This document shows, piece by piece, positions 1,305 through 55,154 of a DNA stretch of 64,000 bases. The notes beneath the pieces were generated by a model that was not told the DNA's origin, ran no database searches, and saw only the letters and a list, made by a program, of their open reading frames with translations. The stretch covers positions 16,275 through 80,274 of the forward strand of contig CAIYMY010000029.1 in assembly GCA_903927465.1 (NCBI GenBank), in the 5' to 3' direction. Within the stretch, counting starts at the first letter, position 1. Every line of letters begins with the position of its first letter. The position numbers were made by a program, and so were the translations under genes. Origin of the DNA: an uncultured Rhodospirillales bacterium. Lineage in GTDB: Bacteria; Pseudomonadota; Alphaproteobacteria; Acetobacterales; Acetobacteraceae.

Positions 1305-3386
1305 CTAGCTTGGCAGGCTCACATCCAGGTTAAGGGCGGCATCGCAGCGCGCGGTGGCGCCTGGTGGCAGCACCAGCGTGCATTCGCGTTCTTCAATGAG
1401 CGCCGGGCCGGCCACGCTTTCGCCCGGGCGAAGCGCCAAGCGGTTCAGCACTGGCGTTTCAACATAGGCCCCGCCAAACCAGGCACGGCGCGTGCCGCGC
1501 TGCAAAGCACCTTCTGCGGCTCCGCTTTGCTGCGTCAGGTCCACCACCGGGCGTGGGCCAGCTACAATCACCTGCCAGGATACGCATTCCACCGGCAAGC
1601 CGGGTTCGGTGCGTCCGTAAAGCGCCAGATAGGCGGCTTCAAATTTCGCGCGCAATTCTGCCGCATCGCCCTGCGTGATCGCCTCGGCCGGGATTTCCGC
1701 TTCCACCTGGAACCCCTGCCCGGCATAGCGCATGGCACCCAGGATGCGCGCTGATGCAGCTTCCGGCGCCACACCTGCCGCGGCCGCCATAGCTTTGCCT
1801 TGGGCCGTCATGGTGCTGGTGATCTCACGCAGCCGCGCAAAATCCAACCCGGCCAAGGGGGCTACCCAACCCTGCACGAAAGCGAAGGAAATCGGCGCCG
1901 CCAGAAAACCAAAAGCCGAAGCAACCCCCGCGCCCAAAGGCACGATGATGCGGCGAAGGCCAAGTTTCATGCCGATATGGCAGGCATGCACAGGGCCTGC
2001 ACCGCCGATTGGCACCATCGCATAAGCATCAATACGCTTGGCCTTTTCCAACGCGTGGATCGCCGCCGCCTGCGCCATATTGCCATTGACGGTTTCATGG
2101 ATGGCCCAGGCGGCTTCCGGCACAGAAAGACCAAGTGGCTTGCCGATGTGTTCGGCCAAAGCCGCTTCCGCCGCCGCGACATCCAGCTTCATCGCGCCAC
2201 CCAGGAAGCTTTCAGCGCCAAGATAACCCAGCACCAAATCCGCATCCGTGACTGTGGGGCGCGCGCCGCCAAGCCCGTAGCAGGCGGGGCCGGGATCGGA
2301 ACTCGCGCTTTCCGGGCCCACACGCACCAGGCCGAGGCGATCCACCCGCGCGATGGAACCGCCGCCCGCGCCGATTTCGATCATGTCAATGACCGGCACC
2401 TTGAGCGGCAATCCGCTGCCCTTGCGGAAGCGATCCACGCGCGCGACTTCGAAATCGAGGCTGCGCTGAGCTTCGCCATTATCAATCAACGCGGCTTTGG
2501 CGGTGGTACCGCCCATATCAAAGCAAAGGATATCGCGCGCCCCTGCCGCCGCACCATAAATACCAGTGGCTTCCACACCGCCCGCGGGGCCGGATTGCAC
2601 CAAGCGGATCGGGTGACGCGCCGCGGTTTCTTCCGCGACGGTCCCTCCATCAGACAGCATCAGGAAAAGCGGACCGGTTAGGCCGAAGCCGCGCAAGCCA
2701 TCGCTCAAGCGCCGTAGATAGCGTTCAAAGACAGGCTGCACATAGGCGTTGCATACAGTGGTGGAGGCGCGTTCATATTCACCGATTTCCGGCACGATTT
2801 CGGAAGAAAGGCACACGGTCAATTCGGGCGCTTCTTCCGTTAGAATCTCGCGCATGCGCAGTTCATGCGCGGGATTGCGGAAGGCATGCAGGAAACAGAC
2901 AGCAACCGCCTTTGCCCCGGCAGCGCGCAACGCCCGTACCGCTTCGCGCGCGCTGGCTTCATCAAGCGCTTCGCGCACCGTGCCATCAGGCAGCAGGCGT
3001 TCAGCCACCCCAAGCCGGCGATGGCGCGGCACAAGCGGTTCCGGCACACGCATGAACAGATCATAGGTATCGTGGCGGAGTTCGGTGCCGATTTCCAGAA
3101 TATCGCGAAAGCCTTTGGTGGTGATCAGGCCCGTGGGCACGCCGCGGCGTTCGATCAGTGCATTGGCGACCAGCGTGGTGCCGTGAATGACGTGGCGGAC
3201 TTCCTCTGCCCGCGCACCGGTGCGCGCCAGCAAATCGCGCACGCCTTCCAGCACCGCTTCTTCCGGGGCGTGGGGCGTGGTGAGCACCTTGCCATTGAAG
3301 ATGCGCCCGTCACGCGAATCGAGCATGACCAAATCGGTGAAGGTGCCGCCGATATCAACACCAATGCGCCAGGGTGCGGGGTTCAT
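1305..3386 (-). CDS. Hydantoinase A / 5-oxoprolinase family ATP-binding subunit
   Basis: GVDIGGTFTD, HGTTLVANA, SGPAGG, DMGGTTAKA, IGAGGGSIA and PTVTDADLVLG motifs; 693 aa; start overlaps the stop of subunit B (ATGA). Confidence 0.93.
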   Translation of the reverse strand: MNPAPWRIGVDIGGTFTDLVMLDSRDGRIFNGKVLTTPHAPEEAVLEGVRDLLARTGARAEEVRHVIHGTTLVANALIERRGVPTGLITTKGFRDILEIGTELRHDTYDLFMRVPEPLVPRHRRLGVAERLLPDGTVREALDEASAREAVRALRAAGAKAVAVCFLHAFRNPAHELRMREILTEEAPELTVCLSSEIVPEIGEYERASTTVCNAYVQPVFERYLRRLSDGLRGFGLTGPLFLMLSDGGTVAEETAARHPIRLVQSGPAGGVEATGIYGAAAGARDILCFDMGGTTAKAALIDNGEAQRSLDFEVARVDRFRKGSGLPLKVPVIDMIEIGAGGGSIARVDRLGLVRVGPESASSDPGPACYGLGGARPTVTDADLVLGYLGAESFLGGAMKLDVAAAEAALAEHIGKPLGLSVPEAAWAIHETVNGNMAQAAAIHALEKAKRIDAYAMVPIGGAGPVHACHIGMKLGLRRIIVPLGAGVASAFGFLAAPISFAFVQGWVAPLAGLDFARLREITSTMTAQGKAMAAAAGVAPEAASARILGAMRYAGQGFQVEAEIPAEAITQGDAAELRAKFEAAYLALYGRTEPGLPVECVSWQVIVAGPRPVVDLTQQSGAAEGALQRGTRRAWFGGAYVETPVLNRLALRPGESVAGPALIEERECTLVLPPGATARCDAALNLDVSLPS

Positions 3387-4981
3387 GGCGTCACATAGCC
3401 TTCCTTGATATCGCGGGCGATCGCGGCGGGATCACGTTCCGCCACCGGTCCCATGCCGCCGCCGCCTGGTGTTTCATAGGTAATGACATCACCTGGTTGC
3501 AAAACGATCCGCGCCTTGGCGGCGACAGGTTTGCCATTGACCAGATCACGCCCGCCGCGCCCCGCCGCGCCGCCCAAAATACCGCGCGGTGGGTGCTGCA
3601 CGCGTTCATGGCGATACGTAGCCGTCACAGGTTTTTCGCCGACGACTTCAAAGGAAAGCCGTTGAGACAGCCCGCCGCGCATGCGCCCCGCGCCGCCGGA
3701 ATTGGGGATGAGTTCCTTTTCCGTCATCAACATTGGGACAGCGTTTTCAAACTGCTCCACCGCTTGCGTTGCGACATTGGATGGGAAGGAAAGGCAGGCA
3801 GGACCATCATGCTGGGGTGCGGCGCCATGGCCACCATTCATGAAAAACATGCGCACATAACGACGGCCTTCGGCATTCTCGCCAGTGAAATACACATTCC
3901 ATAGCGGGCTGCCGCTTTCCGCGATCACGCGATCTGGAATGAGTTTCGCAAGCGCCGCCAGCACCAGCATGGGCAGATAATGGCCGGTTAGATGCCGCCC
4001 CCACACTGGCGCCGGGCGGCGCGGATTCACAATCGAACCTTCCGGTGCGATGAAGGTGATGGGCCGGAAGGATCCATCATTATTCGGTGTCGCGGGATCG
4101 AAAGCGCATTTCACCGCGTAATTGGAATAGGCGCGCGTGAAATTGAGCGGCGCATTCACCGGGCGCGCAATCTGCCCATCCGTACCGGTAAAATCCAGGA
4201 TCAGATCACTGCCCTTGATGGTCAGTTTCAGGCGAATGGTGACGGGGTGTTCAAAGCCATCGGCGGTGACTTCATCTTCCACCACGCCATCCGGTGCGGC
4301 GGCGATCGCATCGCGCATGGCGCGTTCGGAACGGGTGAAGATTTCGCCGGCCAGCGCATCCAAATCATCAATGCCTTCTTCGGTCATAATGCGCGCCAGG
4401 CGCTTTTCCGCCTGTTCGTAAGCCGCGAATTGCGCGCGGATATCGCCGAGCGTTTCATCCGGCTGGCGCAGATTGGCTTCCATGAAGGCAATCACATCCT
4501 CATTTTCCACGCCACCCTTCAGGATGCGGGTGATGGGAATGGTGAGGCCTTCTTCCCAGGAATCGCGCGCATCCACGGAAGGCGCGCCGCCGATATCGGT
4601 GGAATGGAAGGTGCTGCCTAGCCATGAAATCACGCGGCCCTTGGCGAAGACGGGCTTGATCATCGTGATGTCATTCAAATGGCCGGTGCCGTAATAGCCA
4701 TCATTCGAAATCAACACATCGCCAGGTGAAAGCCGTTCCACCGGGTAGCGTTGCAGCATGATTGCCAGCGTACGCGGCATGGTGCCCACAAAGGATGGGA
4801 CAGAACGTGATGATTGCGCGAATTGCCGCCCGCTGCTGTCCATCAGCCCAATCGCCATATCCCAATTGTCGCGCACAACAGATGAGAAGGAGGTGCGGAC
4901 AAAACTCTGCGCCGTTTCATCCATGAGCCCCGCAATGCGCTGCCAGGCAGTGCCAAGCCGAAGGGCAGAAAAGCTGGACAT
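3383..4981 (-). CDS. Hydantoinase B / oxoprolinase family subunit
   Basis: SFSSVVRDNWD, GHLNDIT, HSTDIGG, GGHGA, GRMRGGL and TPGGGGMG motifs; AGGAGA RBS supports ATG 4981. Confidence 0.92.
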   Translation of the reverse strand: MSSFSALRLGTAWQRIAGLMDETAQSFVRTSFSSVVRDNWDMAIGLMDSSGRQFAQSSRSVPSFVGTMPRTLAIMLQRYPVERLSPGDVLISNDGYYGTGHLNDITMIKPVFAKGRVISWLGSTFHSTDIGGAPSVDARDSWEEGLTIPITRILKGGVENEDVIAFMEANLRQPDETLGDIRAQFAAYEQAEKRLARIMTEEGIDDLDALAGEIFTRSERAMRDAIAAAPDGVVEDEVTADGFEHPVTIRLKLTIKGSDLILDFTGTDGQIARPVNAPLNFTRAYSNYAVKCAFDPATPNNDGSFRPITFIAPEGSIVNPRRPAPVWGRHLTGHYLPMLVLAALAKLIPDRVIAESGSPLWNVYFTGENAEGRRYVRMFFMNGGHGAAPQHDGPACLSFPSNVATQAVEQFENAVPMLMTEKELIPNSGGAGRMRGGLSQRLSFEVVGEKPVTATYRHERVQHPPRGILGGAAGRGGRDLVNGKPVAAKARIVLQPGDVITYETPGGGGMGPVAERDPAAIARDIKEGYVTP

Positions 4982-4994
4982 AGCGTATTCTCCT

Positions 4995-6593
4995 TTAGCC
5001 GCGCATGGCTTGTAGCTGCGCGGCATAGCCGGCGGGGTTCACCGTTACATCAATCAGGCTTGGGCCTTGCAGCGCAAAAGCGGCTTCAAGGGCGGTGATG
5101 TATTCGGCTTCGGTCGTGGCGCGGAAGCCCGTGGCGCCAAAGCCTTCTGCGATGGCGGCGAAATCCGGCCGTGCCCAGCGCACACCCTCGGGCGGCAACT
5201 GCCGCTGCTGCTGCTTGATATCAATCAGCGACAGCGCGCCATCATTAAAGACGATGGTGATGCAGGGCGCGCCGGCCTCCGCCGCCGTTGCGAGTTCTGC
5301 CACGCACATCATCAACCCGCCATCGCCGGTAAAAGCAATGGCGCCATCAGCAGGGTTTTCCAGTGCGGCAGCAAGCGCGGCTGGGAGCGCAAAGCCCATC
5401 GAGGCGAGGCCGTTGGAAATCAACACATCGCGCGGCGCCGCGCATTCCCAGAAAGCGGTGGCCGAGAACATATGCGCCCCCGCATCAACGCTGATGCGTG
5501 GGGTGCGCCCAGCGCGGCGCGCGGCTTCCTGCGCCAAACTCACAATAAGCGGCGGTGCGACACCGCCTGAGCCCTGCCAAGTCAAAGCCGCGCGCATGGT
5601 ATCCCGATGTGTCGCAATCACCGCGCCATCCCACGCACTGCGTTTGGCGCTGTGCGCCAGCGCGGTAAAGCACGGCGCCAACGCGCCATGCAGTGATGCG
5701 GTGGGCGTGACGTAATGCACGTGATGTGCGCGCAAGCCGATATCCAGGACTGGCGCCGTATAGCGCCAAGGTTGCAGGATGAGTTCCACCGGATCGAGGC
5801 CCGCCAGGATGATCAAATCCGCATCCTGCACGCAGGGTGCTTCCAAAGATCCGCCGGTGAAAATGCCGACGAAATGCGGATCAGCATCCGCGATCACGCC
5901 CTTGGCTTTATAGGTTACCAGCGCCGGGCAGCCGAGCGCCGCCACCAAAGCGCGCAGTGGTTCGGCTGCCGTTACGGCTTCCACACCCGCCAGGATCACG
6001 GGCTTGCGCGCCGCAGCCAATACTGCACGCGCTTTAGCCAAGGCTGCGTTATCAAGTGGCGTGGGTATGCTTGCCGGCAAAGGCGGTAATTCGCCCGCCG
6101 GGCGGCGCGCAGCTTCGCTGGTTAAATCCAGATGCACCGGGCCGATCGGCGCTTGCATGGCAAGGTCAAGCAGGGCTTCGATCTCGGCCGCCGGGTTTTC
6201 GCTGCGCGCTTGGGAATAACCCTTCACCAATTCGGCGCTCACGTTCCGCTGATCAAACACCTGATGGGTGATGTAGCTGATTTGCTTTTCGGTGAAGCCA
6301 TCGGTCAGCAGCAACACCGGCGCGCGTTCCAACGCGGCACAAGCAATCCCATTCAGCGCATTCATCAACCCCGGGCCCTTGGTGGTCAGCACCACACCGG
6401 GTGCGCCGGTCACTTCCGCATCCGCCACCGCCATCATCGCCGCATTGCCTTCATGACGCGCCAGGATGAAGCGAATGCCAAAACGCTCGGCTGCTGCGAT
6501 GATATCCAGCGAAGAACCACCCCCCGGCACGCCATAGATGCGCCTGGTGCCGCGCCGCGCGAGCGCTGCCAGCAAATACTCAGCGGTGTTCAT
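4995..6593 (-). CDS. Thiamine diphosphate-dependent enzyme (acetolactate synthase-like superfamily)
   Basis: YGVPGG, RHE catalytic Glu, GPGLMN, SNGLASMGFALPAA, and the GDG...ND ThDP/Mg motif; ATG 6593 overlaps the upstream stop (ATGA). Confidence 0.9.
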   Translation of the reverse strand: MNTAEYLLAALARRGTRRIYGVPGGGSSLDIIAAAERFGIRFILARHEGNAAMMAVADAEVTGAPGVVLTTKGPGLMNALNGIACAALERAPVLLLTDGFTEKQISYITHQVFDQRNVSAELVKGYSQARSENPAAEIEALLDLAMQAPIGPVHLDLTSEAARRPAGELPPLPASIPTPLDNAALAKARAVLAAARKPVILAGVEAVTAAEPLRALVAALGCPALVTYKAKGVIADADPHFVGIFTGGSLEAPCVQDADLIILAGLDPVELILQPWRYTAPVLDIGLRAHHVHYVTPTASLHGALAPCFTALAHSAKRSAWDGAVIATHRDTMRAALTWQGSGGVAPPLIVSLAQEAARRAGRTPRISVDAGAHMFSATAFWECAAPRDVLISNGLASMGFALPAALAAALENPADGAIAFTGDGGLMMCVAELATAAEAGAPCITIVFNDGALSLIDIKQQQRQLPPEGVRWARPDFAAIAEGFGATGFRATTEAEYITALEAAFALQGPSLIDVTVNPAGYAAQLQAMRG

Positions 6594-8278
6594 GCGCGTG
6601 CCCGATCCGGCCAGAAGCGCACACCGGCCCGCGCGAGCCCGCCGCCAAGGCCAATCGCCGTACCATCCGCGCGCCAGCACGCCGCCCCTTCCATGCTGCC
6701 ATCGGCCTGGAAGGTGATGGCATTCATGCCGCCGCCAACATGCGGCATGGGCGCAACCTGATGCCCGCGAGCCTTGAGCGCTTCAAGCACCGCGGCATCA
6801 AAGTCGGGTTCAACTTCCACCGCAGCGCCTTGAGTCCAAAGCCGCGGCGCTTCCACCGCTTCCTGCAGCGACATGCCGTGATCCACCAGATTGAGCAAAC
6901 CCTGCATGACCGAACCGAAAATCCGCAAACCGCCCGGCATGCCAAGCGCATAAGCGGGCTTGCCATCCTTCAGCGCAATCAGCGGCGCCTGGGATGTGGT
7001 GATGCGCTTGCCGGGCGCGACAGACAAAGCCTTGCCGGGGCGCGGATCGAACAGCGCCATATAGTTGTTCGGGATCAGCCCCGTGCCCGGCACCAGGAAG
7101 CGCGCGCCAAACAGTGAATTGATGGTCTGCGTTGAGCAAACAATATTGCCCTGATCATCCGCCACCGTGACATGGGTGGTATTGGCGCTCTCGCCGGGGC
7201 TGACCCCCGGCCCCCAGGTTTGCGCGCGCGCCATATCAACTGCGGCGCGGCGTTCATCGCCATAGGCGCGCGAAATCAGCCGCGCCACGGGTACATCCAC
7301 AAAGGTAGGATCAGCAGTGGCGGCGGCACGATCAGCGAAGGCAATCTTCAACGCCTCGGCCAGCAGATGCAGCGTATCGGCGCTGCCGAAACCCATCCCG
7401 TGCAGATCGAAGCCTTCCAATATGTTCAGCATTTGCAGCACATGCACGCCGGAAGACGCCGGGGGCGGTGGCAGCAAAACCTCATAACCACGATAGGGGC
7501 CACGCAAAGGCGCGCGTTCAATCGTCGTGAAATCTGCAATATCGGCGGCGGAGACAATGCCGCCCGCCTTCCTGATGCCATCAGCAATCGCGCTGCCCAA
7601 GGCGCCCTTCAGCACGCCAGGCCCTTCGCGCGCGATCAGCGCGAGGGTTTCAGCATATTCCGCCTGGATCAGCCGCGCACCTGGCTTGATCGGCGCGCCA
7701 CCTGGCAATAATAGCGCGGCAATGGCGGGGTCGCGCGCCAGATCATGCGCTGCTTCATTGATGCATTCGGCCAGATAGGGCGTGACGCCAAAACCGCGCG
7801 CCGCGTGGCGTATCGCCGGCGCCATCACATCAGAAAGCGGCATGCTGCCGAAGCGTTCCAGCGTTTCGCACCAGGCGCGCAAATTGCCCGGCACGGCGAC
7901 AGAAAGCGGGCCGACGATATTGGCGCGGCCCGTCGCTTCAAAATTCATCGCATTGGCGGGCGCAGCGGGCGTGAACATATCGGCGCGCGCCGCAGCCGGC
8001 GCGGTGGACAGCCCATCAATCACGGTGTGCCGCCCATCTGGCAAGCGCAGATGCGCCATGCCGCCACCCAGAATGCCCACCATCATGGGTTCCACCACGG
8101 TCAGCGTGAACAGCGCGGCGATGGCGCCATCCACCGCATTGCCACCGGCAGCGAGCATTTCCGCCCCAGCGGCGGAGGCGAGCGGATGGTTCGTCACCAC
8201 CATGCCGCGCGTGCCCGTGGCGGGGCGTTTTTCCGTGGTAAAATGCGTGCCAGCGCGCGACCGCCAATTATCTTGCAT
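6590..8278 (-). CDS. Gamma-glutamyltransferase-fold Ntn-hydrolase (cytoplasmic, atypical substrate pocket)
   Basis: GGNAVDGAIA, N-TTH autocleavage site and PGG oxyanion motif; no signal peptide; alternative start at 8293. Confidence 0.88.
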   Translation of the reverse strand: MQDNWRSRAGTHFTTEKRPATGTRGMVVTNHPLASAAGAEMLAAGGNAVDGAIAALFTLTVVEPMMVGILGGGMAHLRLPDGRHTVIDGLSTAPAAARADMFTPAAPANAMNFEATGRANIVGPLSVAVPGNLRAWCETLERFGSMPLSDVMAPAIRHAARGFGVTPYLAECINEAAHDLARDPAIAALLLPGGAPIKPGARLIQAEYAETLALIAREGPGVLKGALGSAIADGIRKAGGIVSAADIADFTTIERAPLRGPYRGYEVLLPPPPASSGVHVLQMLNILEGFDLHGMGFGSADTLHLLAEALKIAFADRAAATADPTFVDVPVARLISRAYGDERRAAVDMARAQTWGPGVSPGESANTTHVTVADDQGNIVCSTQTINSLFGARFLVPGTGLIPNNYMALFDPRPGKALSVAPGKRITTSQAPLIALKDGKPAYALGMPGGLRIFGSVMQGLLNLVDHGMSLQEAVEAPRLWTQGAAVEVEPDFDAAVLEALKARGHQVAPMPHVGGGMNAITFQADGSMEGAACWRADGTAIGLGGGLARAGVRFWPDRARA

Positions 8279-8289
8279 AGGTATTTCCT

Positions 8290-9498
8290 TCATTGCCGAA
8301 CACGCATCATGAAAAGTGCCGCAACTGCCGCAACGCCAAGCAGCGCGGTCAGCCATAGTGAAGCCGCGCCAAAATCATCCAGTAGCAGCCCAAACAACAA
8401 GGGCGCAAAAGCCTGCGAAGCCCGCGCCGGCGCGGTGATGAAGCCCTGGCGCTGCCCATAGCCAACCGGCCCGAATAGCGCGAGCGGCAACGTGCCGCGC
8501 GTGATGGTCAGCAACCCATTCCCCGCGCCATGGATAATCACAAAAAGCGCGGCAAAGGGCGCGCCCAGCGCCATCAGTACCACCACCGCCACCGGATGCG
8601 CACCAGCGGCAATGCGTGCGGAAAAAAGCGGATTCATCTTGCGCATGAGTGTAAATTCAACAACGCGCGCCGCCACCTGCGCCGGGCCCATCAACGCGCC
8701 AGCTGCAATCGCGACGGCGAGGGATGTGCCTGCGGATTGCAGTAGCCCCGGCAAATGCGCGGCAAGCGCGGTAGAACTAAAACTCGCGGTCGCCAGCACG
8801 AAAGCGAGCAGGATCATGTCGCGTTTGCAGTCCCGCGTTTCCTCGGCAGATAGCGGTGGCGCGGCTTCCTTGGGTGGTGGTGGGGGTGCCTTCGGGATCA
8901 GAATAAGATTGAGCGGCAGGCAGATGAAGAGATGCAAGGCCACCCAGCCGAGGCAGGCGCCGCGCCAGCCCCATTCGGCTTCCATCAGCGCGGAAAGCGG
9001 CCAGCCGACCGTGCTCGCAAAACCCGCAATCAGCGTAATGCCGGTGATGCTGTTGCGCGCATCCTTGCCGTAAAGCCCGGCAAGCGTCGCGAAGGCCGCA
9101 TCATAAAGCCCCATCGCCATGGCAATGCCAATGATGAACCAGCTTAGGATCAGCATCGGCAGACCATTGGCAAAGGCCATGATCAGCAGGCCAAGAATGA
9201 AAATCATGTTCGAAATGGCCAGCACATCGCGCCCACCGCGCTGGTCAATCGCGCGGCCCGCCGCTGGCCCCAGCAGCGCGGTCAGCAGCAGGGAGCCGGA
9301 AAACACGCCAAAGACCAGGGCGCGCGACAGGCCCAGATCCTCGGCGATTGGTGCAGCCAGGATAGCCGGCAGATAATAGGAAGACGCCCAGGCCAGGGTC
9401 TGGGTGGTGCCAAGCACTGTCACCACCCTGGCCTTGGAAGCGGTCGCGCTCACGGAAAAAAGCCGGGTTGCGATTTCAATCCGTGATGGCGCGGCCAC
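8290..9498 (-). CDS. MFS transporter
   Basis: About 12 hydrophobic segments; GRAIDQRGGR motif A; GTG start (exact start uncertain). Confidence 0.88.
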   Translation of the reverse strand: MAAPSRIEIATRLFSVSATASKARVVTVLGTTQTLAWASSYYLPAILAAPIAEDLGLSRALVFGVFSGSLLLTALLGPAAGRAIDQRGGRDVLAISNMIFILGLLIMAFANGLPMLILSWFIIGIAMAMGLYDAAFATLAGLYGKDARNSITGITLIAGFASTVGWPLSALMEAEWGWRGACLGWVALHLFICLPLNLILIPKAPPPPPKEAAPPLSAEETRDCKRDMILLAFVLATASFSSTALAAHLPGLLQSAGTSLAVAIAAGALMGPAQVAARVVEFTLMRKMNPLFSARIAAGAHPVAVVVLMALGAPFAALFVIIHGAGNGLLTITRGTLPLALFGPVGYGQRQGFITAPARASQAFAPLLFGLLLDDFGAASLWLTALLGVAAVAALFMMRVRQ

Positions 9499-10555
9499 GC
9501 GCTGCGGCGTAGCGTTCCGCGAAGCGGCCCTTCACTTCCGGGTTGATGATGCGTGGCGGCATTTTGGCGGCGGCACAGGCAGAAAAGGCTTCCGCCGCAA
9601 TGCGTGTGATCATGGACCGACTTTCATGCGTGACCCCCGCGGTGTGCTGCGTGCAGATCACGGCCGGGTGCCACAATAGCGGGTGTTCCTTGGGCGGCGG
9701 TTCCTGTTCCCAAACATCCAAACCGGCTGAGGCCAATTGTCCCGATTCCAGCGCCACCAGCACAGCGTTTTCATCATGGATGGAACCGCGCGCGGTGGTG
9801 ACCAGAATGGCGCCCTTTTTCATGCCGGCCAGCGCCTTGGCATCAATAATGGCGCGGCTTTGTGGCGTAAGCGGGCAATGCACGCTGACGATATCGGATT
9901 GCGCCAGCAATTCGGCCAATTCCACTTTTTCCGCCCCGCGCTTGGCCACCGTTTCGGCATCCACATAAGGGTCATAAGCCAGCACGCGGCAATTGAAGGC
10001 GGCCTTCACAATGGCGGTGGTGCGTGAACCCACATTGCCAATGCCAATCACGCCAACCGTCTTGTCGAGCAGATTATTGCCCATAAATACTTCGCGGCGC
10101 TTGGCTTCCCCGGCGCGCATGGCGGCATGGGTCTGCGGCATTTTCTTGATCAACGCCAGCATCATGCCAACGGCGTGTTCCGCCACGGCTTCGGCATTAC
10201 CGCCGGCCTGGTTCACCAAAAGCACGCCGGCCTTGGTGCAGGAATCCGGGTTGATCGTGTCATATCCCGCACCCTGGGATGCGACCATCAGCAGATTGGG
10301 CAGGCGCTGCAATAGCGCATCATTCACGTGAAACGCCTTGGGCAATTCATCGCGTGAGGCACGGACATAATAGCCATCACAGGTGGCCAGTTCCGCAAGT
10401 GCTGCTTCTTCCCCATTTTCCAGGGAAAGGCGGACCACTTCCAGGGCCGGATCGGCGGTGGCGGTTTCCAGAAAGCTTGGATGCGGCACGCGTTCCAGAT
10501 AGGCGACGCGGAATGGCTTATTGACTGCGGACAAGATTATTTCCCCCTTGCTCAA
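9476..10555 (-). CDS. D-isomer-specific 2-hydroxyacid dehydrogenase (SerA-like, no ACT domain)
   Basis: GAGYD, GIGNVG Rossmann motif, YDPY, TARG, DVWEQEP and QHTAG catalytic Arg/Glu/His; TTG start. Confidence 0.9.
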   Translation of the reverse strand: MSKGEIILSAVNKPFRVAYLERVPHPSFLETATADPALEVVRLSLENGEEAALAELATCDGYYVRASRDELPKAFHVNDALLQRLPNLLMVASQGAGYDTINPDSCTKAGVLLVNQAGGNAEAVAEHAVGMMLALIKKMPQTHAAMRAGEAKRREVFMGNNLLDKTVGVIGIGNVGSRTTAIVKAAFNCRVLAYDPYVDAETVAKRGAEKVELAELLAQSDIVSVHCPLTPQSRAIIDAKALAGMKKGAILVTTARGSIHDENAVLVALESGQLASAGLDVWEQEPPPKEHPLLWHPAVICTQHTAGVTHESRSMITRIAAEAFSACAAAKMPPRIINPEVKGRFAERYAAARGRAITD

Positions 10556-10601
10556 GGCCGGGGATGCTAGACTTGGTTTTGCCGGGGCGCCAGACCGGGG
10601 C

Positions 10602-10919
10602 CTAGCGCCTAACCGTCAACAGATGAGCCACAATATCATCCAGCTCCTCCCGGCTTAGCCGGTAATCCGGCATATTCGCATGCGGTGTGCGCAAATAGGC
10701 GCGCAGCGACATGGAAGTTGTGGAAGGCAGCGCGGCAATGGCGGCGAAGCTTGGCGCGATATCCGTGGCCGGTCCCGGGCCGCCAGGCGCGATGCGGTGG
10801 CAATTGGCGCACCAGGTGGCGGCCAGGCGCTGTCCGGCAATCGGGTCCCCGGGTTCCATCTGCGCCAGCGCCACGCCGGGCAGCGCTGCCAGCACGCATG
10901 TGATCAGCCAATGGCGCAT
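10602..10919 (-). CDS. Small class I c-type cytochrome
   Basis: Signal peptide, CANCH heme motif, distal MP (HANMPDY); AGGAGG RBS. Confidence 0.85.
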   Translation of the reverse strand: MRHWLITCVLAALPGVALAQMEPGDPIAGQRLAATWCANCHRIAPGGPGPATDIAPSFAAIAALPSTTSMSLRAYLRTPHANMPDYRLSREELDDIVAHLLTVRR

Positions 10920-10955
10920 TTTGATCCTCCTGCTTCGGGGGAGCCCGGCCTTGCC

Positions 10956-11705
10956 TCAGGCGAGGTAATTGCCCCCGTTGATGTGATAAACCTGACCCGT
11001 GATCCAGGCGGCTTGATCAGACGCAAGATAGGCCATCAATCCGGCGATTTCTTCGGGCCGCCCCATCCGCCCCAGCGGGATTTGCTGGGCCATGACCGCA
11101 AGCTCCGCTTCACTATTGCCGTAGCGCGGCTGCGCGGTATCGGTCAGGCCCGGTGCGATGGCGTTCACGCGAATGCCCTTGGAAGCAAGCGACAGGGCCA
11201 TGGACCGTGTCATGCCGATAATGCCGGCCTTGGTCGCCGTGTAATGCACCCCAAGCGGTGCCCCCCGGACGGAGGAGGAAGAAAGGTTGATGATCACCCC
11301 CTTGATCCCCGCCGCCACCATGGCGCGCGCCGCCGCCTGGGCGCAAAAGGCGCTGCCCTTCAGGTTCACGGCAATCACTCGGTCCCATTCCGCTTCGGTC
11401 ATTTCCAAAAATTCAACGCGGGGGAAGATGCCGGCATTATTGACCAGCACATCAATGCGCCCGAGTGCGGCGATGGTCTGTTCCACCAGGGCGGCAGCGC
11501 CGGCGGCAGTGCCGACATCGCCCCGGATCAGCGCGGCTTTGCGGCCTGAAGCGCGAATATCGGCTGCCAGGGCTTCGGCTTGGGCCTGGTTATCCAGCCA
11601 GTTGATCGCGACATCATGGCCCGCTGCCGCCAGGGCGCGCGCGGCCGCGGCCCCGATGCCCTGCTGCGCGCCGGTTACCAGCGCCACCCGTGTTTCGTCT
11701 GCCAT
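10956..11705 (-). CDS. Classical SDR oxidoreductase (FabG-like)
   Basis: TGAQQGIG, NNAG, YTATK and VNAIAPG motifs. Confidence 0.9.
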   Translation of the reverse strand: MADETRVALVTGAQQGIGAAAARALAAAGHDVAINWLDNQAQAEALAADIRASGRKAALIRGDVGTAAGAAALVEQTIAALGRIDVLVNNAGIFPRVEFLEMTEAEWDRVIAVNLKGSAFCAQAAARAMVAAGIKGVIINLSSSSVRGAPLGVHYTATKAGIIGMTRSMALSLASKGIRVNAIAPGLTDTAQPRYGNSEAELAVMAQQIPLGRMGRPEEIAGLMAYLASDQAAWITGQVYHINGGNYLA

Positions 11706-11818
11706 GGTCCGAACCCCCTGAAATCAGCGGAAGCCTAGTGCCAAATGCGCCCCCTGTCTTGAGGGCTTGCCCCGGCGCCCGCCCGGTGGCACCCCTTGTC
11801 AGAGAGGGAGGCGGCGCA

Positions 11819-12586
11819 GTGGATATTGCTGGAATGTTCTCGTTGCAGGGGCGCGTGGCGCTGGTGACTGGTGCGTCTGGCGTTTTGGGCGCGCATTTCG
11901 CGCGGGTTCTGCATGGCGCGGGTGCCTCAGTGGCCTTGGCCGCGCGGCGCGAAGCCGCGACAGCAGCGCTGGCCAGCGAATTGGGTGCGCGCGCGGTTTC
12001 TGTGCCTTTGGATGTGACCGCGCCGGAGACCATCCCATTGGCCTTTGCCGCCGCGGAAGCCGCCTTCGGCGCGCCATGCGATATTCTGGTCAATAATGCC
12101 GGCATCGCCGTGACCAAGCCCGCTTTGCAACAAAGCGCTGAGGATTGGGATTCGGTGCTGGATGTAAATTTGCGCGGCTGTTTTCTGGTGGCGCAGGAAG
12201 CCGCCAAGCGCCTGGTGGCGGCGAAGCGCCCGGGCGTGGTGGTGAATATCGCCTCCGTCCTTGGGGAGCGCATCATTCCGGGTGTGGTCGGCTATACCGC
12301 CGCCAAGGCCGGGCTTTTGCACATGACGCGCCATTTGGCGGTGGAATGGGCGCGGCATGGCATTCGGGTGAATGCGATTGCGCCGGGCTATATCGCCACT
12401 GATATCAACCGTGATTACTTCGCCTCCGATTCCGGGCAGGCGATGATCAAACGCATCCCGCAACGCCGGCTTGGCGCTGCCGAGGACCTTACCGGGCCGC
12501 TTTTGCTGCTCGCTTCCGATGCCGGGGCGCATATGACCGGCGCGGTGGTGACAGTGGATGGCGGCCATTCGATCAACCCGCTTTAG
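11819..12586 (+). CDS. SDR oxidoreductase, LvaD-like (putative 4-oxoacyl-CoA reductase)
   Basis: TGASGVLG, NNAG and YTAAK motifs; GAGGGAGG RBS before GTG 11819 (alternative ATG 11834). The LvaD assignment comes from operon context. Confidence 0.85.
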   Translation: MDIAGMFSLQGRVALVTGASGVLGAHFARVLHGAGASVALAARREAATAALASELGARAVSVPLDVTAPETIPLAFAAAEAAFGAPCDILVNNAGIAVTKPALQQSAEDWDSVLDVNLRGCFLVAQEAAKRLVAAKRPGVVVNIASVLGERIIPGVVGYTAAKAGLLHMTRHLAVEWARHGIRVNAIAPGYIATDINRDYFASDSGQAMIKRIPQRRLGAAEDLTGPLLLLASDAGAHMTGAVVTVDGGHSINPL

Positions 12587-12597
12587 GTTTTGCCGCC

Positions 12598-13809
12598 ATG
12601 GAATTCACGCTGCCCCCCGAAATTGATGATATGCGCCGGCGCATTCGTCGCTTTGTTGATGAAAAGCTGATTCCTCTGGAATCCAACCGCGCGAATTTCG
12701 ATGAGCATGAAAACATCGCGCCCCATGTGCTGGCGGAAATGCGCAAGGCCGCAAAGGCGGAAGGGCTTTGGGCTTTGCAAATGCCAAAGCGCCTGGGTGG
12801 CCAGGAATTGCCGCGCATTGGCATGGCCGCTTGTTATGAGGAAATGAATCGCTCCATCTTCGGGCCAGTGGTGTTCAATAGCGCAGCGCCGGATGACGGC
12901 AATATGATGATCCTGGATCGCGTTTTGCCGGAAGCGATGAAGCCGCGCTGGTTGCAGCCGATTGTGAATGGCGAAGTGCAATCCGCCTTCGCCATGACCG
13001 AACCGGATGGCTGCGGTTCTGACCCGAACCTGACCTATACCAAGGCGGAACGCGTCGGCAATGATCGCTGGCGCATCACCGGGCGCAAATGGTTCATCAC
13101 CGGCGCCGGCAATGCGAAGATTTTCATTATTCTGGCGCGTACATCGGATGATCCCCGCAAGGGGCTTTCCGCCTTCCTGTTCAGCGCCGATCAGCCGGGC
13201 TGGAAGATCGTACGCCGCATTCCGATCATGGGGCCGGAAGAACATGGCGGGCATTGCGAATTGGAATTCGACGGGCTGGAAGTCCCGAATGAACACCTTT
13301 TGATGAATGAAGGCGATGGGCTGAAGCTGACGCAAATGCGCCTGGGTGTGGCGCGGTTGACGCATTGCATGCGCTGGCTGGGATTGTCTCGACGTGCTTT
13401 GGAAATTGCCATGGAACGCATCGCGCAACGCGATTCCTTCGGCATGAAGCTGATTGACCGCGAAAGCGTGCAGGGCCTGGTGGGCCAGGCGGCGATGGAA
13501 ATCGAGATTGGCCGGCTGCTGACCATGAAGGCGGCCTGGATTCTGGACCAAGGCGGCTTCGCGCGGAAGGAAGTTTCCATGGCGAAGATTGTGGTCGCGG
13601 ATGCTTTGCAAAAATCCGTGGATACGGCGCTGCAATTGCTGGGCGCGCGCGGCTATTCCAAGGATACGGTGATTGAATGGATGTACCGCTATGCTCGCCA
13701 GGCACGCCTGGTGGATGGCGCATCCGAAGTACATCGCATGGTGTTGGCCAATACATTGCGGGCGGAGGGCTCTTCCTTCTTCGCCTGGGGTCCGCCCAAG
13801 CATGGATGA
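12598..13809 (+). CDS. Acyl-CoA dehydrogenase, LvaC/ACAD10-11-like
   Basis: FAMTEP..GSDP, GRKWFITGA, RLTHCMRWLG, and VDGASEVH with Asp at the position of the usual catalytic Glu. Confidence 0.9.
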   Translation: MEFTLPPEIDDMRRRIRRFVDEKLIPLESNRANFDEHENIAPHVLAEMRKAAKAEGLWALQMPKRLGGQELPRIGMAACYEEMNRSIFGPVVFNSAAPDDGNMMILDRVLPEAMKPRWLQPIVNGEVQSAFAMTEPDGCGSDPNLTYTKAERVGNDRWRITGRKWFITGAGNAKIFIILARTSDDPRKGLSAFLFSADQPGWKIVRRIPIMGPEEHGGHCELEFDGLEVPNEHLLMNEGDGLKLTQMRLGVARLTHCMRWLGLSRRALEIAMERIAQRDSFGMKLIDRESVQGLVGQAAMEIEIGRLLTMKAAWILDQGGFARKEVSMAKIVVADALQKSVDTALQLLGARGYSKDTVIEWMYRYARQARLVDGASEVHRMVLANTLRAEGSSFFAWGPPKHG

Positions 13810-14809
13810 GGCGCGGCGCGCAAAGCTGACGGATTGGCTGCACAGGGCCACCGGCGCGGCGGATGTGAAGCTGGGCGCGATGGCGCTGCTTTCTGGCGGC
13901 GCCATTCAGCAGAATTGGGCGCTTGATGTTGTGTTGGCAGGGCGCGACGAAGCTTGGGTACTGCGCACGGATAATGCCGCGACCTTGGCGGTTTCCTTGC
14001 CTCGATCAGCGGAGTTTGCGCTGTTGAAGGCGGCGTTTGCTGCCGGCGTGACGGTCCCGGCGCCGCTTTATTTGTGTGAGGATACCGGCGTGCTTGGCCC
14101 GCCGTTTTTCATCATGCGTCGCGTGCAGGGCATTGCCGCCGGGCATCGCGTGGTGAAAAGCGAAACGCTTTGCGGCGGACGTGATGCGGCGGTGGCGGCT
14201 TTGGGGCGCGAATTGGCGCGCATTCATCGCATCACGCCGCCGCGCGTGGATTTGGCGTTCTTGGGCACGCCGCCAGATGATGCCTGCCTTGCCTTTGTGG
14301 CCGAGCAGCGCCGTGCTTTGGATCGGCAGGTGCTGCCACGCCCTGTGCTGGAATGGGGGCTGCGGCATCTGGAACGCACCGCGCCGGCGCCTTTGCCGCC
14401 CGTGTTGAACCATAATGATTTTCGCACTGGCAATCTGATGTTGGCGGATAATGGCGTGACGGCGGTGCTGGATTGGGAATTCGCCGCCTGGGGCGATCCA
14501 CATGCGGATCTCGGTTGGTTCTGCGCCAAATGCTGGCGCTTTGGCAGCGCCCATGAGGCGGGCGGTATTGGTGCGCGTGATGCCTTCTATGCTGGCTATG
14601 CTGCGGAAGCGAGCCGCGCGGTGGATGCGGCGCGCGTCATGTGGTGGGAATTGGCCGCGCATATACGCTGGGCGGTGATTGCGATTGACCAGGGAGAACG
14701 GCATCTTTCGGGCAAGGAAACCAGCCTGGAATTGGCACTCACGGGCCATATCGTGCCGGAGCTTGAATGGGAAATCCTGAATATGACGGGGGTGCCCCAT
14801 GCAGCGTGA
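13802..14809 (+). CDS. APH-family phosphotransferase, LvaA/ACAD10-kinase-like
   Basis: LSGGAIQ P-loop-like segment, HNDFRTGNLM catalytic loop and VLDWE Mg-binding motif; ATG 13802 overlaps the ACAD 3' end. Confidence 0.88.
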   Translation: MDEARRAKLTDWLHRATGAADVKLGAMALLSGGAIQQNWALDVVLAGRDEAWVLRTDNAATLAVSLPRSAEFALLKAAFAAGVTVPAPLYLCEDTGVLGPPFFIMRRVQGIAAGHRVVKSETLCGGRDAAVAALGRELARIHRITPPRVDLAFLGTPPDDACLAFVAEQRRALDRQVLPRPVLEWGLRHLERTAPAPLPPVLNHNDFRTGNLMLADNGVTAVLDWEFAAWGDPHADLGWFCAKCWRFGSAHEAGGIGARDAFYAGYAAEASRAVDAARVMWWELAAHIRWAVIAIDQGERHLSGKETSLELALTGHIVPELEWEILNMTGVPHAA

Positions 14810-15158
14810 AGCCCCGGAAGGCCCAAGCCTACTGGCCACGGCGCGTGATGCGCTGTTGCAGGAGATTTTGCCCAAGCTTTCCGGCACGGATGCCTTCACC
14901 ACGCGCATGATCGCCAATGCCATGGCGATTGCAGCGCGAGAGGCCGTACAGAATGGCTCTTGGTTGGAAGAAACACGCGCCACGATGCAGCACCTGACTG
15001 GCGCGACCGAGGCGCCGGATACTGCCTTCGCCGCCGCTATTCGCGCGGGTGCTTTTGATCCGGGTAGCGCGCATTACGCCGAAGCAGCGGCGCTGCTGCG
15101 TGAGGCAGCGCGGATGCGTTGTGCCATCAGCGCGCCGCGGGTTTTGGGAAAGGGCTGA
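14799..15158 (+). CDS. Small helical partner protein (DUF6285/LvaB-like)
   Basis: 119 aa, overlaps the phosphotransferase 3' end; P...LL..AR..L..E.LP.L N-terminus resembles small proteins found beside APH genes. Confidence 0.7.
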   Translation: MQREAPEGPSLLATARDALLQEILPKLSGTDAFTTRMIANAMAIAAREAVQNGSWLEETRATMQHLTGATEAPDTAFAAAIRAGAFDPGSAHYAEAAALLREAARMRCAISAPRVLGKG

Positions 15159-15161
15159 CGC

Positions 15162-16772
15162 ATGCAGGATGATCTGCCGAAAACTGCCGCAAATCACGTA
15201 CCGCTTTCCCCAGTCTCCTTCCTGCCGCGCGCGGCGCATGTCTGGGGCAAGCGCGTGGCCATTATTCATGGCGCGCGGCGCATCACCTATGCGCAGTTTC
15301 TGGACCGCAGCCGGCGCTTGGCTTCTGCGCTAAGTCAGGCGGGTATTGCGCCAGGCGATGTGGTCGCAGCGCTTTTGCCGAATATTCCCGAAATGCTGGA
15401 AGCGCATAACGCCGTGCCCATGGCGCATGCGGTGCTCTGCCCCATTAATACGCGATTGGATGCGCCGACAGTGCGCTTCATCATGGACCATTCCGGCGCA
15501 AAACTTCTGCTGCTGGACCGCGAATTTGCCGCGCTGGTGAATGCCGCGCTGGAAGGCGCAGAAAACCCGCCCCGCATTATCATCATCGATGATCCAGAAG
15601 GCCCAGGTGGCGCCGCAATTGAAGCGACGGCTTATGAGGATTTCATCGCTGGCGGCGATCCTGCCTTTCCAGTGATACCGCCACCGGATGAATGGGCGGC
15701 GATTTCACTTTCCTATACTTCCGGCACCACAGGTGATCCCAAGGGCGTTGTGGTGCATCATCGCGGTGCTTATCTGAATGCTTGCGGTAATGCGCTGTCT
15801 TTTGGGTTGAATGCGCAAAGCGTCTATCTGTGGACGCTACCGATGTTTCATTGCAATGGCTGGACCTATACCTGGGCGGTCACGCTGCAAGGGGGCACAC
15901 ATATCTGCCTGCGCCGTGTGGAGCCCGCGCGGAATTTTGCGCTGATTGCTGAATATGCTGTGACGCATCTTTGCGCCGCGCCGGTGGTGCTGACCATGCT
16001 GATCCATGCACCGGAAGATCAGCGGCGCAGCTTCGCGCATCGTGTAGGGATTGCCACTGGTGGCGCGGCGCCGCCTTCGCCGGTGATTGCGGCCATGGAG
16101 AATCTCGGCTTCGATGTCACGCATCTTTATGGCCTGACGGAGTGCTATGGCCCATCATTGCTTTGCGCCTGGCAGCCGGGCTTGCATGACCTGCCTTTGG
16201 CTGAAAAAGCCGCCTTCATGGCGCGGCAAGGTGTGGCTTTACCGACACTGGAAGAAGCGACGGTGATCAATACTGAAACGGGTACGACTGTGCCGGCAGA
16301 TGGCGCGACAATTGGTGAGATTGCCATTCGCGGCAATACAGTGATGAAGGGTTATTTGCGTAACCCTAAGGCCAATGCAGCGGTTTTTGTAGATGGTTGG
16401 TTCCGCACTGGCGATTTGGGTGTGCTGCACCCCGATGGCTATATCGAAGTCAAGGACCGCGCCAAGGATATTGTGATCTCCGGCGGTGAGAATATTAGCA
16501 GCCTTGAAGTCGAAGAAGCGCTCTATCGCCATCCGGATGTGATGGAAGCAGCGGTGGTGGCACACCCAGATGAAAAATGGGGCGAAGTGCCGCATGCTTT
16601 CATTACGCTGAAGCCGGGTGCTGCCGAGAACCGCGATTCCATTATCGCTTTTTGCCGTGCAAACTTGGCAGGATTTAAAATGCCGCGCCACATCAGTTTC
16701 GGTCCACTGCCGAAAACCGCAACTGGCAAAATCCAGAAATTCGAATTGCGCGCCCGGGTGCGCGGTGGCTGA
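15162..16772 (+). CDS. AMP-forming acyl-CoA synthetase, LvaE-like
   Basis: YTSGTTGDPKG, YGLTE, GWFRTGDLG, KDIVISGGENISS and PKTATGKIQK motifs. Confidence 0.93.
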   Translation: MQDDLPKTAANHVPLSPVSFLPRAAHVWGKRVAIIHGARRITYAQFLDRSRRLASALSQAGIAPGDVVAALLPNIPEMLEAHNAVPMAHAVLCPINTRLDAPTVRFIMDHSGAKLLLLDREFAALVNAALEGAENPPRIIIIDDPEGPGGAAIEATAYEDFIAGGDPAFPVIPPPDEWAAISLSYTSGTTGDPKGVVVHHRGAYLNACGNALSFGLNAQSVYLWTLPMFHCNGWTYTWAVTLQGGTHICLRRVEPARNFALIAEYAVTHLCAAPVVLTMLIHAPEDQRRSFAHRVGIATGGAAPPSPVIAAMENLGFDVTHLYGLTECYGPSLLCAWQPGLHDLPLAEKAAFMARQGVALPTLEEATVINTETGTTVPADGATIGEIAIRGNTVMKGYLRNPKANAAVFVDGWFRTGDLGVLHPDGYIEVKDRAKDIVISGGENISSLEVEEALYRHPDVMEAAVVAHPDEKWGEVPHAFITLKPGAAENRDSIIAFCRANLAGFKMPRHISFGPLPKTATGKIQKFELRARVRGG

Positions 16773-16775
16773 GGC

Positions 16776-28483: not shown

Positions 28484-28493
28484 TGGATAGGGC

Positions 28494-34250: not shown

Positions 34251-34305
34251 GGTCATCCCCTGTTGTTGAAACGCATCCAACAAAAAGCAAGTTCTAGTCT
34301 GCCGT

Positions 34306-38303: not shown

Positions 38304-38354
38304 GGTGCTTCCTTCAAAATTCACCGCGGCAGCTTCGCATGGCGGCGCGGCAGG

Positions 38355-53947: not shown

Positions 53948-54098
53948 GATGTTTCATCCTTGCTTATCGGGCAAAAGCCTCGGCATGCGGCGAAACCCTG
54001 TCAAGCAGCGCAAAGGGGCTGGACCTGGGCCGCGCATCGGCACAGGGTATCTTCACATGACCAAAGCGCGGACCAACCGCGCAGAACAGGAGAGGAAG

Positions 54099-55055: not shown

Positions 55056-55154
55056 CTTGTGTTTGGTCGCATTTTCCGAGTCGCCAAGCGGGGCGCTTGG
55101 CTTGAAAATGCTCCGGGTCCTTGACCGCGCTTCGCTTGGGGGTTTCAACAGCCC

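Follow-up and report, generated by a model that had tools for sequence, protein, structure and literature searches.

A 64-kb stretch of DNA from an uncultured Rhodospirillales bacterium (contig CAIYMY010000029.1, hereafter the window) contains a gene for a protein resembling gamma-glutamyltranspeptidase (GGT) on its minus strand at positions 6590–8278. The open reading frame (ORF) runs from ATG 8278–8276 to TGA 6592–6590 and encodes 562 amino acids, exactly where the original prediction, a note made from the DNA letters, had located it. Reading of the sequence revealed a Shine-Dalgarno element (AGGAAA, 8284–8289, minus strand) 5 nt upstream of the ATG and straight after the stop codon (8292–8290) of the preceding gene, which encodes a major facilitator superfamily (MFS) transporter. 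ATG 8278 was taken as the start because of this element and because the N-terminus that it defines is kept in homologues. A longer ORF from ATG 8356 was rejected, as 66 nt of it would lie inside the MFS gene and homologues lend it no support; the extension is not signal-peptide-like. Judged by its sequence, the GGT-like protein lacks the substrate-anchoring and export features of functional gamma-glutamyltranspeptidases, despite its score against the TIGR00066 model.

The gene lies in a run of minus-strand genes. In the direction of transcription these encode a short-chain dehydrogenase/reductase (SDR; 10956–11705), a small c-type cytochrome of 105 amino acids (10602–10919; PF00034 and PF13442), a D-isomer-specific 2-hydroxyacid dehydrogenase (2HADH, 9476–10555; Pfam 2-Hacid_dh and 2-Hacid_dh_C), the MFS transporter (8290–9498), the GGT-like protein, a thiamine diphosphate (ThDP)-dependent enzyme of about 532 amino acids (4995–6593; Pfam TPP_enzyme_N/M/C), a hydantoinase B/oxoprolinase subunit (HydB, 3383–5026; PF02538, E 5e-140) and a hydantoinase A/oxoprolinase subunit (HydA, 1305–3386; PF01968, PF05378 and PF19278), the last being a subunit of an ATP-dependent lactam or hydantoin hydrolase. 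The junctions from 2HADH to HydA measure −23, +11, −4, at most −32 and −4 nt. The 2HADH gene overlaps the MFS start by 23 nt, 11 nt separate the end of the MFS gene from the start of the GGT-like gene, the ATG of the ThDP gene overlaps the GGT-like stop codon (ATGA), and the HydA/HydB junction is likewise an ATGA overlap; HydB has an alternative start at an internal Met at about 4981. By these junctions, 2HADH-MFS-GGT-like-ThDP-HydB-HydA is a translationally coupled unit. The cytochrome c gene, 46 nt upstream of the 2HADH gene, is possibly the first gene of the transcription unit. It also precedes 2HADH in Neoroseomonas. The SDR gene is co-directional and in Neoroseomonas is also syntenic with 2HADH and MFS. 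The window also carries mutS, glnD, lptD, surA and maeB and was therefore taken to be chromosomal; no tRNA gene and no Rfam family at the gathering threshold was found across the whole 64 kb. The nearest relatives (92–96% identity) come from metagenome-assembled genomes (MAGs) of freshwater Roseomonas.

Profile, catalytic residues and fold all make the protein a member of the GGT/MEROPS T03 family of N-terminal nucleophile (Ntn) hydrolases. PF01019 was matched with an E-value of 1.7e-131 over residues 40–536 of 562, and HMMER aligned both the E. coli GGT precursor (2e0w) and the Bacillus licheniformis GGT (4y23) over the full length (E ~1e-94). An AF2 model (pTM 0.81, mean pLDDT 73) was matched to 2e0w by Foldseek with template modeling (TM) scores of 0.80/0.89 and an E-value of 6e-44, which bears out the GGT fold claimed previously. 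The protein scores 407 bits against the TIGR00066 gamma-glutamyltransferase equivalog, above the cut-off of 357.85, and for this reason annotation pipelines name it ggt, as had been anticipated; the stricter NF007187 model was missed (350 bits compared with 990). Every named homologue in RefSeq, JGI and UniRef is called gamma-glutamyltransferase or glutathione hydrolase, and RefSeq orthologues on plasmids and chromids carry the name "ggt" together with glutathione Gene Ontology (GO) terms.

Active-site residues were mapped by HMMER alignment to 2e0w, and the residue numbers of E. coli GGT were checked by reconstructing its fragment from the aligned letters, which gave R114, T391(A), T409, N411, Q430, D433, Y444, S462, S463, G483, G484 and R513. 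At these positions the GGT-like protein has L, T, T, N, Y, L, no equivalent of the lid Tyr, T, S, G, G and R, respectively. Thr367, in the motif S-A-N-T-T-H (codon 7178–7180, minus strand), aligns with Thr391, the nucleophile and autoprocessing site, Thr385 with T409, and Gly449-Gly450 with G483-G484; Asn387 (the Asn411 equivalent) and Arg479 (the Arg513 equivalent) are kept. The nucleophilic Thr and the TQTIN and PGG motifs are thus retained in the alignment, as had been noticed by eye. Self-cleavage of the precursor before Thr367 is predicted to give a large subunit of residues 1–366 and a small subunit of residues 367–562.

The residues that recognize glutamate fare differently. In GGTs, Arg114, Ser462 and Ser463 hold the alpha-carboxylate of the bound gamma-glutamyl group, and Asn411, Gln430 and Asp433 hold its alpha-ammonium group (PMC8062742), in agreement with the role that the original prediction had given to the residues it reported as lost. 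In the alignment and the clade read-out, Leu90 (codon 8009–8011, minus strand) takes the place of the carboxylate anchor Arg114, and in the stretch Tyr406-Met-Ala-Leu409 (codons 7052–7063, minus strand) Tyr406 and Leu409 stand for the alpha-amino anchors Gln430 and Asp433. The corresponding motifs change from DFREMAP to DGLSTAP and from NNQMDDF to NNYMALF, and the loss of all three anchors proved to be fixed over the 59 members of the clade described below. A third motif changes from PLSSMSP to ITTSQAP; here the loss had been overstated, since Ser463 is kept as Ser429 and Ser462 is conservatively replaced by Thr428. The aligned glutamate site is therefore only partly dismantled, the Arg114, Gln430 and Asp433 anchors being gone and the Ser/Thr pair and the Asn staying. 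The lid region (E. coli 434–460) is indeed short, with 16 residues compared with 26 in E. coli, but Bacillus GGTs also have 16 and the short lid is by itself not unusual.

Published mutagenesis bears directly on these positions. The R114L variant of E. coli GGT (EcGGT) is inactive, and the R109L and R109M variants of B. licheniformis GGT (BlGGT) retain 4–5% of hydrolysis and lose transpeptidation (PMC8062742). EcGGT D433N and the E423Y/E442Q/D445N variant of B. subtilis GGT (BsGGT) gain activity on glutaryl-7-aminocephalosporanic acid, the acyl group of which has no alpha-amino group (PMC8062742). The natural substitutions in the GGT-like protein echo these laboratory mutations that turn GGT away from alpha-amino-bearing substrates.

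To place the protein among its relatives, an exhaustive HMMER search of 1.84 billion representatives was made and the alignment columns were read out for 59 non-redundant alphaproteobacterial relatives and 61 canonical GGTs. Typical exported GGTs follow the pattern R-T-T-N-[EQ]-D-S-S-M-G-G-R, with Arg114 and Asp433 present in 61 of 61. The query and all relatives down to approximately 55–62% identity instead follow [LMQ]-T-T-N-Y-x-[TSA]-S-[MQ]-G-G-R, and we refer to this group by its signature as the Leu/Met/Gln114-Tyr430-non-Asp433 clade. Position 114 is L in 28, M in 17 and Q in 14 members and R in none; at position 430, 57 of the 59 have Tyr; position 433 is L in 40, V in 7, T in 5, N in 5 and I in 2, and Asp in none. 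The Asn433 sub-clade includes Agrobacterium vitis, Roseivivax and Terrarubrum, and Arg114 is absent there as well. Position 463 is invariably Ser and position 462 is Thr, Ser or Ala. The Thr367, Thr385 and Gly449-Gly450 positions are invariant in all 59. More than 30 further positions are invariant in the clade yet rare or absent in canonical GGTs, including His76, His84, Trp136, Cys172, Trp481-Thr482 and Cys534-Trp535; the Cys534 position is Asp569 in canonical GGTs, where it is 97% conserved. The clade also has a conserved C-terminal tail that canonical GGTs lack. The invariant His76, His84, Cys172 and Cys534, all absent from canonical GGTs, could bind a metal, form a disulfide or provide a new site for substrate binding.

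These clade-invariant residues and the tail indicate, at the level of aligned sequences, purifying selection on a distinct pocket and a clade signature rather than decay. Loss of the anchor residues could in principle reflect relaxed selection on a catalytically dead or decaying paralogue, but we give this explanation hardly any credence: the catalytic residues are all invariant, at least 30 positions are clade-specific and invariant, mean column identity is 79–81% among members down to 68% pairwise identity, and the gene has an intact frame, is translationally coupled within its operon and belongs to a cluster that is transcribed in lakes. In lake metatranscriptomes the 2HADH gene is the best-covered gene of the cluster, with RNA contigs at depth 8–17, the genes downstream of it are sparsely covered, and RNA contigs span 10575–10947, the region of the small cytochrome. 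The cluster is thus expressed in situ; for the GGT-like gene itself the support is weak.

The clade is a real, conserved and uncharacterized sub-family. That GGT-family members can diverge in function is, in principle, no longer new. The next-nearest groups, at 44–50% identity, also lack R114 and D433 and include no functional names, and the family contains many further non-canonical cytoplasmic sub-groups. Literature searches returned no characterized member of the clade and no cluster combining HydAB or creatininase with GGT-like, RraA and 2HADH genes, and no description of the clade was found in papers on GGT subfamilies.

Export signals are missing from the N-terminus. The first 30 residues are hydrophilic, and no extension lies N-terminal to the mature domain, in a region where most canonical relatives carry 30–80 additional residues. 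By a Kyte-Doolittle heuristic no Sec or Tat signal was recognized, the maximum 11-residue mean within the first 45 amino acids being 1.25, which agrees with the claim that a signal peptide is absent. From the missing extension and the lack of a hydrophobic stretch, again a heuristic, the protein is likely cytoplasmic.

None of the partner proteins reaches an NCBIfam equivalog cut-off. The 2HADH resembles phosphoglycerate dehydrogenases and glyoxylate reductases in NCBIfam, and the MFS transporter is nearest to organic-anion types (ArsK, lactate, oxalate-formate), all below cut-offs. The ThDP enzyme is distantly similar to acetolactate synthases and 2-oxoacid decarboxylases, with a catabolic acetolactate synthase as its best PDB match (~180 bits). 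HydB scores 178 bits against caprolactamase beta (cut-off 1000), and the best PDB matches of HydA are N-methylhydantoinase (7hk5, 404 bits) and caprolactamase (6yra, 349 bits); 5-oxoprolinases are also found among HydAB homologues. In the remaining 53 kb of the window these partner families do not occur again, and no carbamoyltransferase or allantoin gene was found among the neighbors.

We also surveyed the surroundings of orthologues in other genomes. A one-genome-per-species scan yielded 80 loci, PLSDB supplied 13 more orthologues with 56–61% identity, and clustering at 80% identity reduced the loci to 41 lineages. The HydAB-ThDP-MFS-2HADH arrangement is kept only among relatives with more than 92% identity. 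A single conserved operon throughout the clade was rejected, as ORF clustering of 68 divergent loci gave no neighbor family common to all, the sole widespread neighbor cluster consisting of generic SDRs. At least one partner family was nevertheless found within 9 kb in 20 of the 41 lineages. HydAB genes are co-directional with the GGT-like gene in lineage L041, divergent in L078 and Roseivivax, and nearby in L021 and Thioclava; in L078 the divergent HydAB genes are followed by a class IV aminotransferase gene, the GGT-like gene and an AtuA-like gene. Creatininase-family cyclic amidohydrolases take the place of HydAB in Terrarubrum, Sagittula and L076, and in Terrarubrum an ABC transporter, a creatininase, an RraA-family protein, the GGT-like protein and a 2HADH are encoded in tight co-directional succession. 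Eight lineages have a 2HADH gene at a distance of up to 3.5 kb and 14 have one at up to 9 kb, and it is immediately beside the GGT-like gene in A. vitis, Terrarubrum, Roseinatronobacter and L061/L076. RraA-family aldolase/decarboxylases were found in four lineages and ThDP enzymes in five; in L020 the ThDP gene begins 36 nt past the GGT-like stop codon, and the Stella ThDP enzyme is 55–56% identical to that of the window. Orthology of the partners between lineages was mostly rejected, the HydA proteins of L041 and L021 having 48–49% identity and others 26–40%.

Some loci in this survey are noteworthy in their own right. In Neoroseomonas marina JC162 (L082), a block of approximately 5.6 kb (2384–7983) lies between the MFS and GGT-like genes, at the place of the window spacer 8279–8289. 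The block comprises genes for two Aspzincin_M35 peptidases, a cNMP-binding regulator of the Crp type, one TPR-S and one TIR_2-domain protein, and a 97-amino acid ORF, and looks like a defense-type island inserted into the ancestral operon. Four loci carry titles that are probably taxonomic mislabels or contamination: those from 'Bosea thiooxidans' (L001) and 'Asaia bogorensis' (L005) match Roseomonas MAGs throughout the operon with 96% identity, and those from 'Bordetella parapertussis' (L055) and 'Mycobacterium sp. KBS0706' (L076) are alphaproteobacterial.

Taken together, clade conservation, published mutagenesis and recurrent catabolic neighbors strengthen the earlier proposal of a cytoplasmic amidase with a new acyl specificity, which we infer rather than observe. 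We favor, with slightly better than even confidence, a cytoplasmic self-processing Ntn amidohydrolase of non-glutamyl specificity that helps to catabolize an imported cyclic-amide organic acid. The accepted acyl group would have no free alpha-amino group, would probably not share the charged distal carboxylate geometry of glutamate, and would not be anchored by a GGT-style distal salt bridge. Mono-amides of small (di)carboxylates, whether neutral, 2-hydroxy or 2-oxo, and ureido compounds would fit this description. In the proposed pathway a cyclic amide, imide or hydantoin carboxylate would be imported and its ring opened by HydAB with ATP, or elsewhere by metal-dependent creatininase-type enzymes. 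The GGT-like enzyme would then hydrolyze the remaining linear amide or ureido bond and release ammonia or an amine. For this step we envisage self-cleavage before Thr367, an acyl-Thr intermediate stabilized by Gly449-Gly450, and hydrolysis. The 2HADH would oxidize the resulting 2-hydroxy acid, and the ThDP enzyme (RraA-type elsewhere) would decarboxylate or cleave the 2-oxo acid. Candidate substrates include malamate, 2-oxosuccinamate and 2-oxo- or 2-hydroxy-glutaramate (the corresponding lactam being 2-hydroxy-5-oxoproline), and N-carbamoyl amino acids and N-substituted glutamine/pyroglutamate pairs may also be considered; direct evidence favors none of them. A more far-reaching and clearly more speculative version, which we would not bet on, is that the clade constitutes an unrecognized GGT-fold 'omega-amidase' or ureido-acid amidohydrolase for 2-hydroxy/2-oxo dicarboxylate mono-amides, with HydAB and creatininase interchangeable, in a widespread and so far undescribed pathway by which alphaproteobacteria would use carboxylates of cyclic imides, lactams or hydantoins, His76, His84, Tyr406 and Trp481 forming the new acyl site.

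Several observations weigh against the favored reading. The pocket loops of the AF2 model (386–392, 404–414, 419–428 and 449–452) are of low confidence, and lake RNA coverage of the GGT-like gene itself is sparse. About half of the 41 lineages lack any partner family within 9 kb, the HydAB and ThDP partners that do occur are mostly non-orthologous across lineages (26–49% identity), and the partners, given here as plain counts over these lineages, belong to common catabolic families. The non-orthologous partners and the variation at position 433 (L, T, N, V) suggest that the clade may serve several related specificities or pathways rather than one. The pocket itself still has Asn411, Ser463 and a Thr at 462, and the invariant His76, His84 or Arg393 may recreate a carboxylate or ammonium site. 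In addition, BlGGT R109S keeps 85% of its activity, and the Geobacillus and Picrophilus GGTs, in which Ser replaces Arg114 and His/Thr occupy 462/463, are described as gamma-glutamyl hydrolases (PMC8062742). Loss of the Arg alone therefore does not exclude gamma-glutamyl hydrolysis.

These last points, together with the TIGR00066 score and the 5-oxoprolinases among HydAB homologues, are what speaks for the protein still being a gamma-glutamyl hydrolase, namely a cytoplasmic enzyme for glutathione, glutamine or a gamma-glutamyl-amine that binds glutamate differently and does not transpeptidate, with HydAB as the 5-oxoprolinase of a module resembling the gamma-glutamyl cycle. We consider this unlikely, because Arg114, Gln/Glu430 and Asp433 are replaced jointly and throughout the clade by hydrophobic or aromatic residues, and exchange of the Arg for Leu or Met leaves at most 5% of hydrolysis and none in EcGGT R114L. 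Moreover, the neighbors are enzymes of 2-hydroxy and 2-oxo acids and not of glutathione or cysteine-glycine metabolism, and no defined oxoprolinase model comes as close to HydA as N-methylhydantoinase and caprolactamase do.

The transporters next to some orthologues point in a different direction. Peptide/opine-type ABC transporters with a family 5 substrate-binding protein, and LysR regulators, adjoin the orthologues of A. vitis, Tistrella, Bosea, Terrarubrum and Pseudosulfitobacter, and HydAB-type enzymes have been proposed as lactam-opine hydrolases on Ti plasmids (PMC6733357). Such neighbors would suit an acylase or deamidase with an enlarged hydrophobic pocket for N-substituted or bulky substrates, such as N-alkylated glutamines, opine-like or Amadori compounds, which would be deamidated while HydAB opens their lactams in parallel, or glutaryl and adipyl donors of the kind used by class IV cephalosporin acylases. 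D433N, the signature of the latter enzymes, occurs as Asn433 in one sub-clade, and the structure search strongly matched 2nlz, a 'cephalosporin acylase' of B. halodurans. For the protein of the window this explanation seems improbable to us: it has Leu at 433 and no Arg for a glutaryl carboxylate, its operon encodes an MFS transporter in place of an opine ABC system and lacks genes for an opine oxidase or dehydrogenase, and the host is a freshwater Roseomonas-like bacterium.

Other parts of the window contain genes of possible catabolic function. Divergent from the operon, the plus-strand region 11690–18002 encodes an SDR, an acyl-CoA dehydrogenase, an APH-type phosphotransferase, an AMP-binding ligase and a family III CoA-transferase, and looks like an acyl-CoA-based catabolic cluster. 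On the minus strand at 26453–29507, a fused large DctM-type permease (676 amino acids) and an NMT1_3/TAXI-type binding protein make up a TAXI-TRAP transporter, near which a metal-dependent amidohydrolase (PF01979) is encoded (32763–34283, minus strand); both are further signs of organic-acid or amide catabolism in the region. At 37101–39497 (minus strand) a family III CoA-transferase gene adjoins a PrpF-family gene, and the GGT-like locus of the Roseivivax plasmid is likewise flanked by '4-oxalomesaconate tautomerase' genes of the PrpF family. A 699-amino acid ORF at 53964–56063 (minus strand) has no Pfam match, overlaps plus-strand ORFs of 382 and 472 amino acids, and is probably a spurious antisense ORF in high-GC DNA.

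If the non-glutamyl specificity is correct, a large set of alphaproteobacterial genes is systematically misannotated, and reconstructions of glutathione turnover are distorted accordingly. The affected genes would come from at least 31 lineages, found in a single scan across representative genomes, and from 13 records of plasmids or chromids, in taxa that include Roseomonas, Bradyrhizobium, Stella, Ferrovibrio, A. vitis and roseobacters, among others. A non-glutamyl specificity would also make the clade the third natural retuning of the GGT scaffold, after HpxW and LmbA, and would point to an uncharacterized catabolic module, composed of a cyclic-amide hydrolase, a GGT-like amidase, a 2HADH and an RraA or ThDP enzyme, with which bacteria of freshwater, soil and the sea would use a nitrogen-containing organic acid. 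Should the omega-amidase proposal hold, 'ggt' annotations that carry glutathione GO terms would be mistaken in hundreds of cases. We regard the clade as a well-defined target for enzyme-function discovery and annotation correction, not as a new biological principle.

Compared with canonical GGTs (E. coli Ggt, 2dbu/2e0w; B. licheniformis; B. subtilis), the GGT-like protein has 33–38% full-length identity. It shares with them the fold, the Thr nucleophile and autoprocessing site, Thr409, Asn411, Ser463, the Gly-Gly pair and Arg513, and its short lid is of the Bacillus type. It differs in having Leu for Arg114, Tyr for Gln/Glu430, Leu for Asp433 and Thr for Ser462. Canonical GGTs are periplasmic or secreted whereas the GGT-like protein has no signal peptide, and canonical ggt stands alone whereas the GGT-like gene sits in a catabolic operon. 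The intracellular or lid-less GGTs of Geobacillus thermodenitrificans (GtGGT) and Picrophilus torridus (PtGGT) and YwrD of B. subtilis, in which Arg114 and Ser462/Ser463 are replaced and which are reported as gamma-glutamyl hydrolases that catalyze hydrolysis only, form a separate branch in the ~22–27% identity class (e.g. 2i3o). Class IV cephalosporin acylases have Asn at the Asp433 position and keep Arg114 for the glutaryl carboxylate; membership of the GGT-like protein in this class was rejected, as it has Leu at both 114 and 433. The structural match 2nlz has only 31% identity and different motifs. Engineered GGTs with a neutral residue at 433 and a Tyr in the alpha-amino triad drop the requirement for an alpha-amino group, and the Asn433 sub-clade has a neutral Asn at 433 by nature.

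Two characterized homologues demonstrate that the GGT fold has been re-specialized before. HpxW is an Ntn hydrolase with the GGT fold and has a non-glutamyl amide as its substrate, and the analogy drawn to it originally holds as a conceptual precedent only. Orthology with HpxW of Klebsiella (5hft) was rejected, as its large and small subunits match with 85.6 and 42.4 bits compared with 320 bits for E. coli GGT; in Foldseek it ranks 50th (TM 0.40/0.73), and no hpx purine, oxalurate or oxamate catabolic context is found at the locus, which has HydAB, ThDP, MFS, 2HADH, SDR and cytochrome c genes. LmbA and Ant6 are GGT homologues of 4-alkylproline biosynthesis that cleave a C-C bond and have no gamma-glutamyl activity (PMC5519988). 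They share with the GGT-like protein the fold and self-processing at a conserved Thr, and differ in belonging to actinobacterial secondary metabolism, in C-C cleavage, and in residue signature and context. LmbA2991 (6j3a) is among the best structural matches (TM 0.77), HpxW and LmbA both handle oxalyl or 2-oxo-acid groups (PMC5519988), and the clade has enzymes of 2-oxo and 2-hydroxy acids as neighbors, so that an LmbA/Ant6-type C-C hydrolase, or an oxalyl-Thr intermediate, acting on a 2-oxo-acid side chain instead of an amide deserves mention. We think this very unlikely, given an identity to LmbA of just 28%, the absence of an alkylproline biosynthetic context and the association with a cyclic-amide hydrolase, which favors amide chemistry; an LmbA-type assignment was rejected on the low identity, the catabolic context and the lack of an alkylproline cluster. 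The re-specialization of both HpxW and LmbA toward oxalyl/2-oxo-acid chemistry would, by analogy, fit the 2-oxo-acid character of the neighborhoods in which the GGT-like clade is found.

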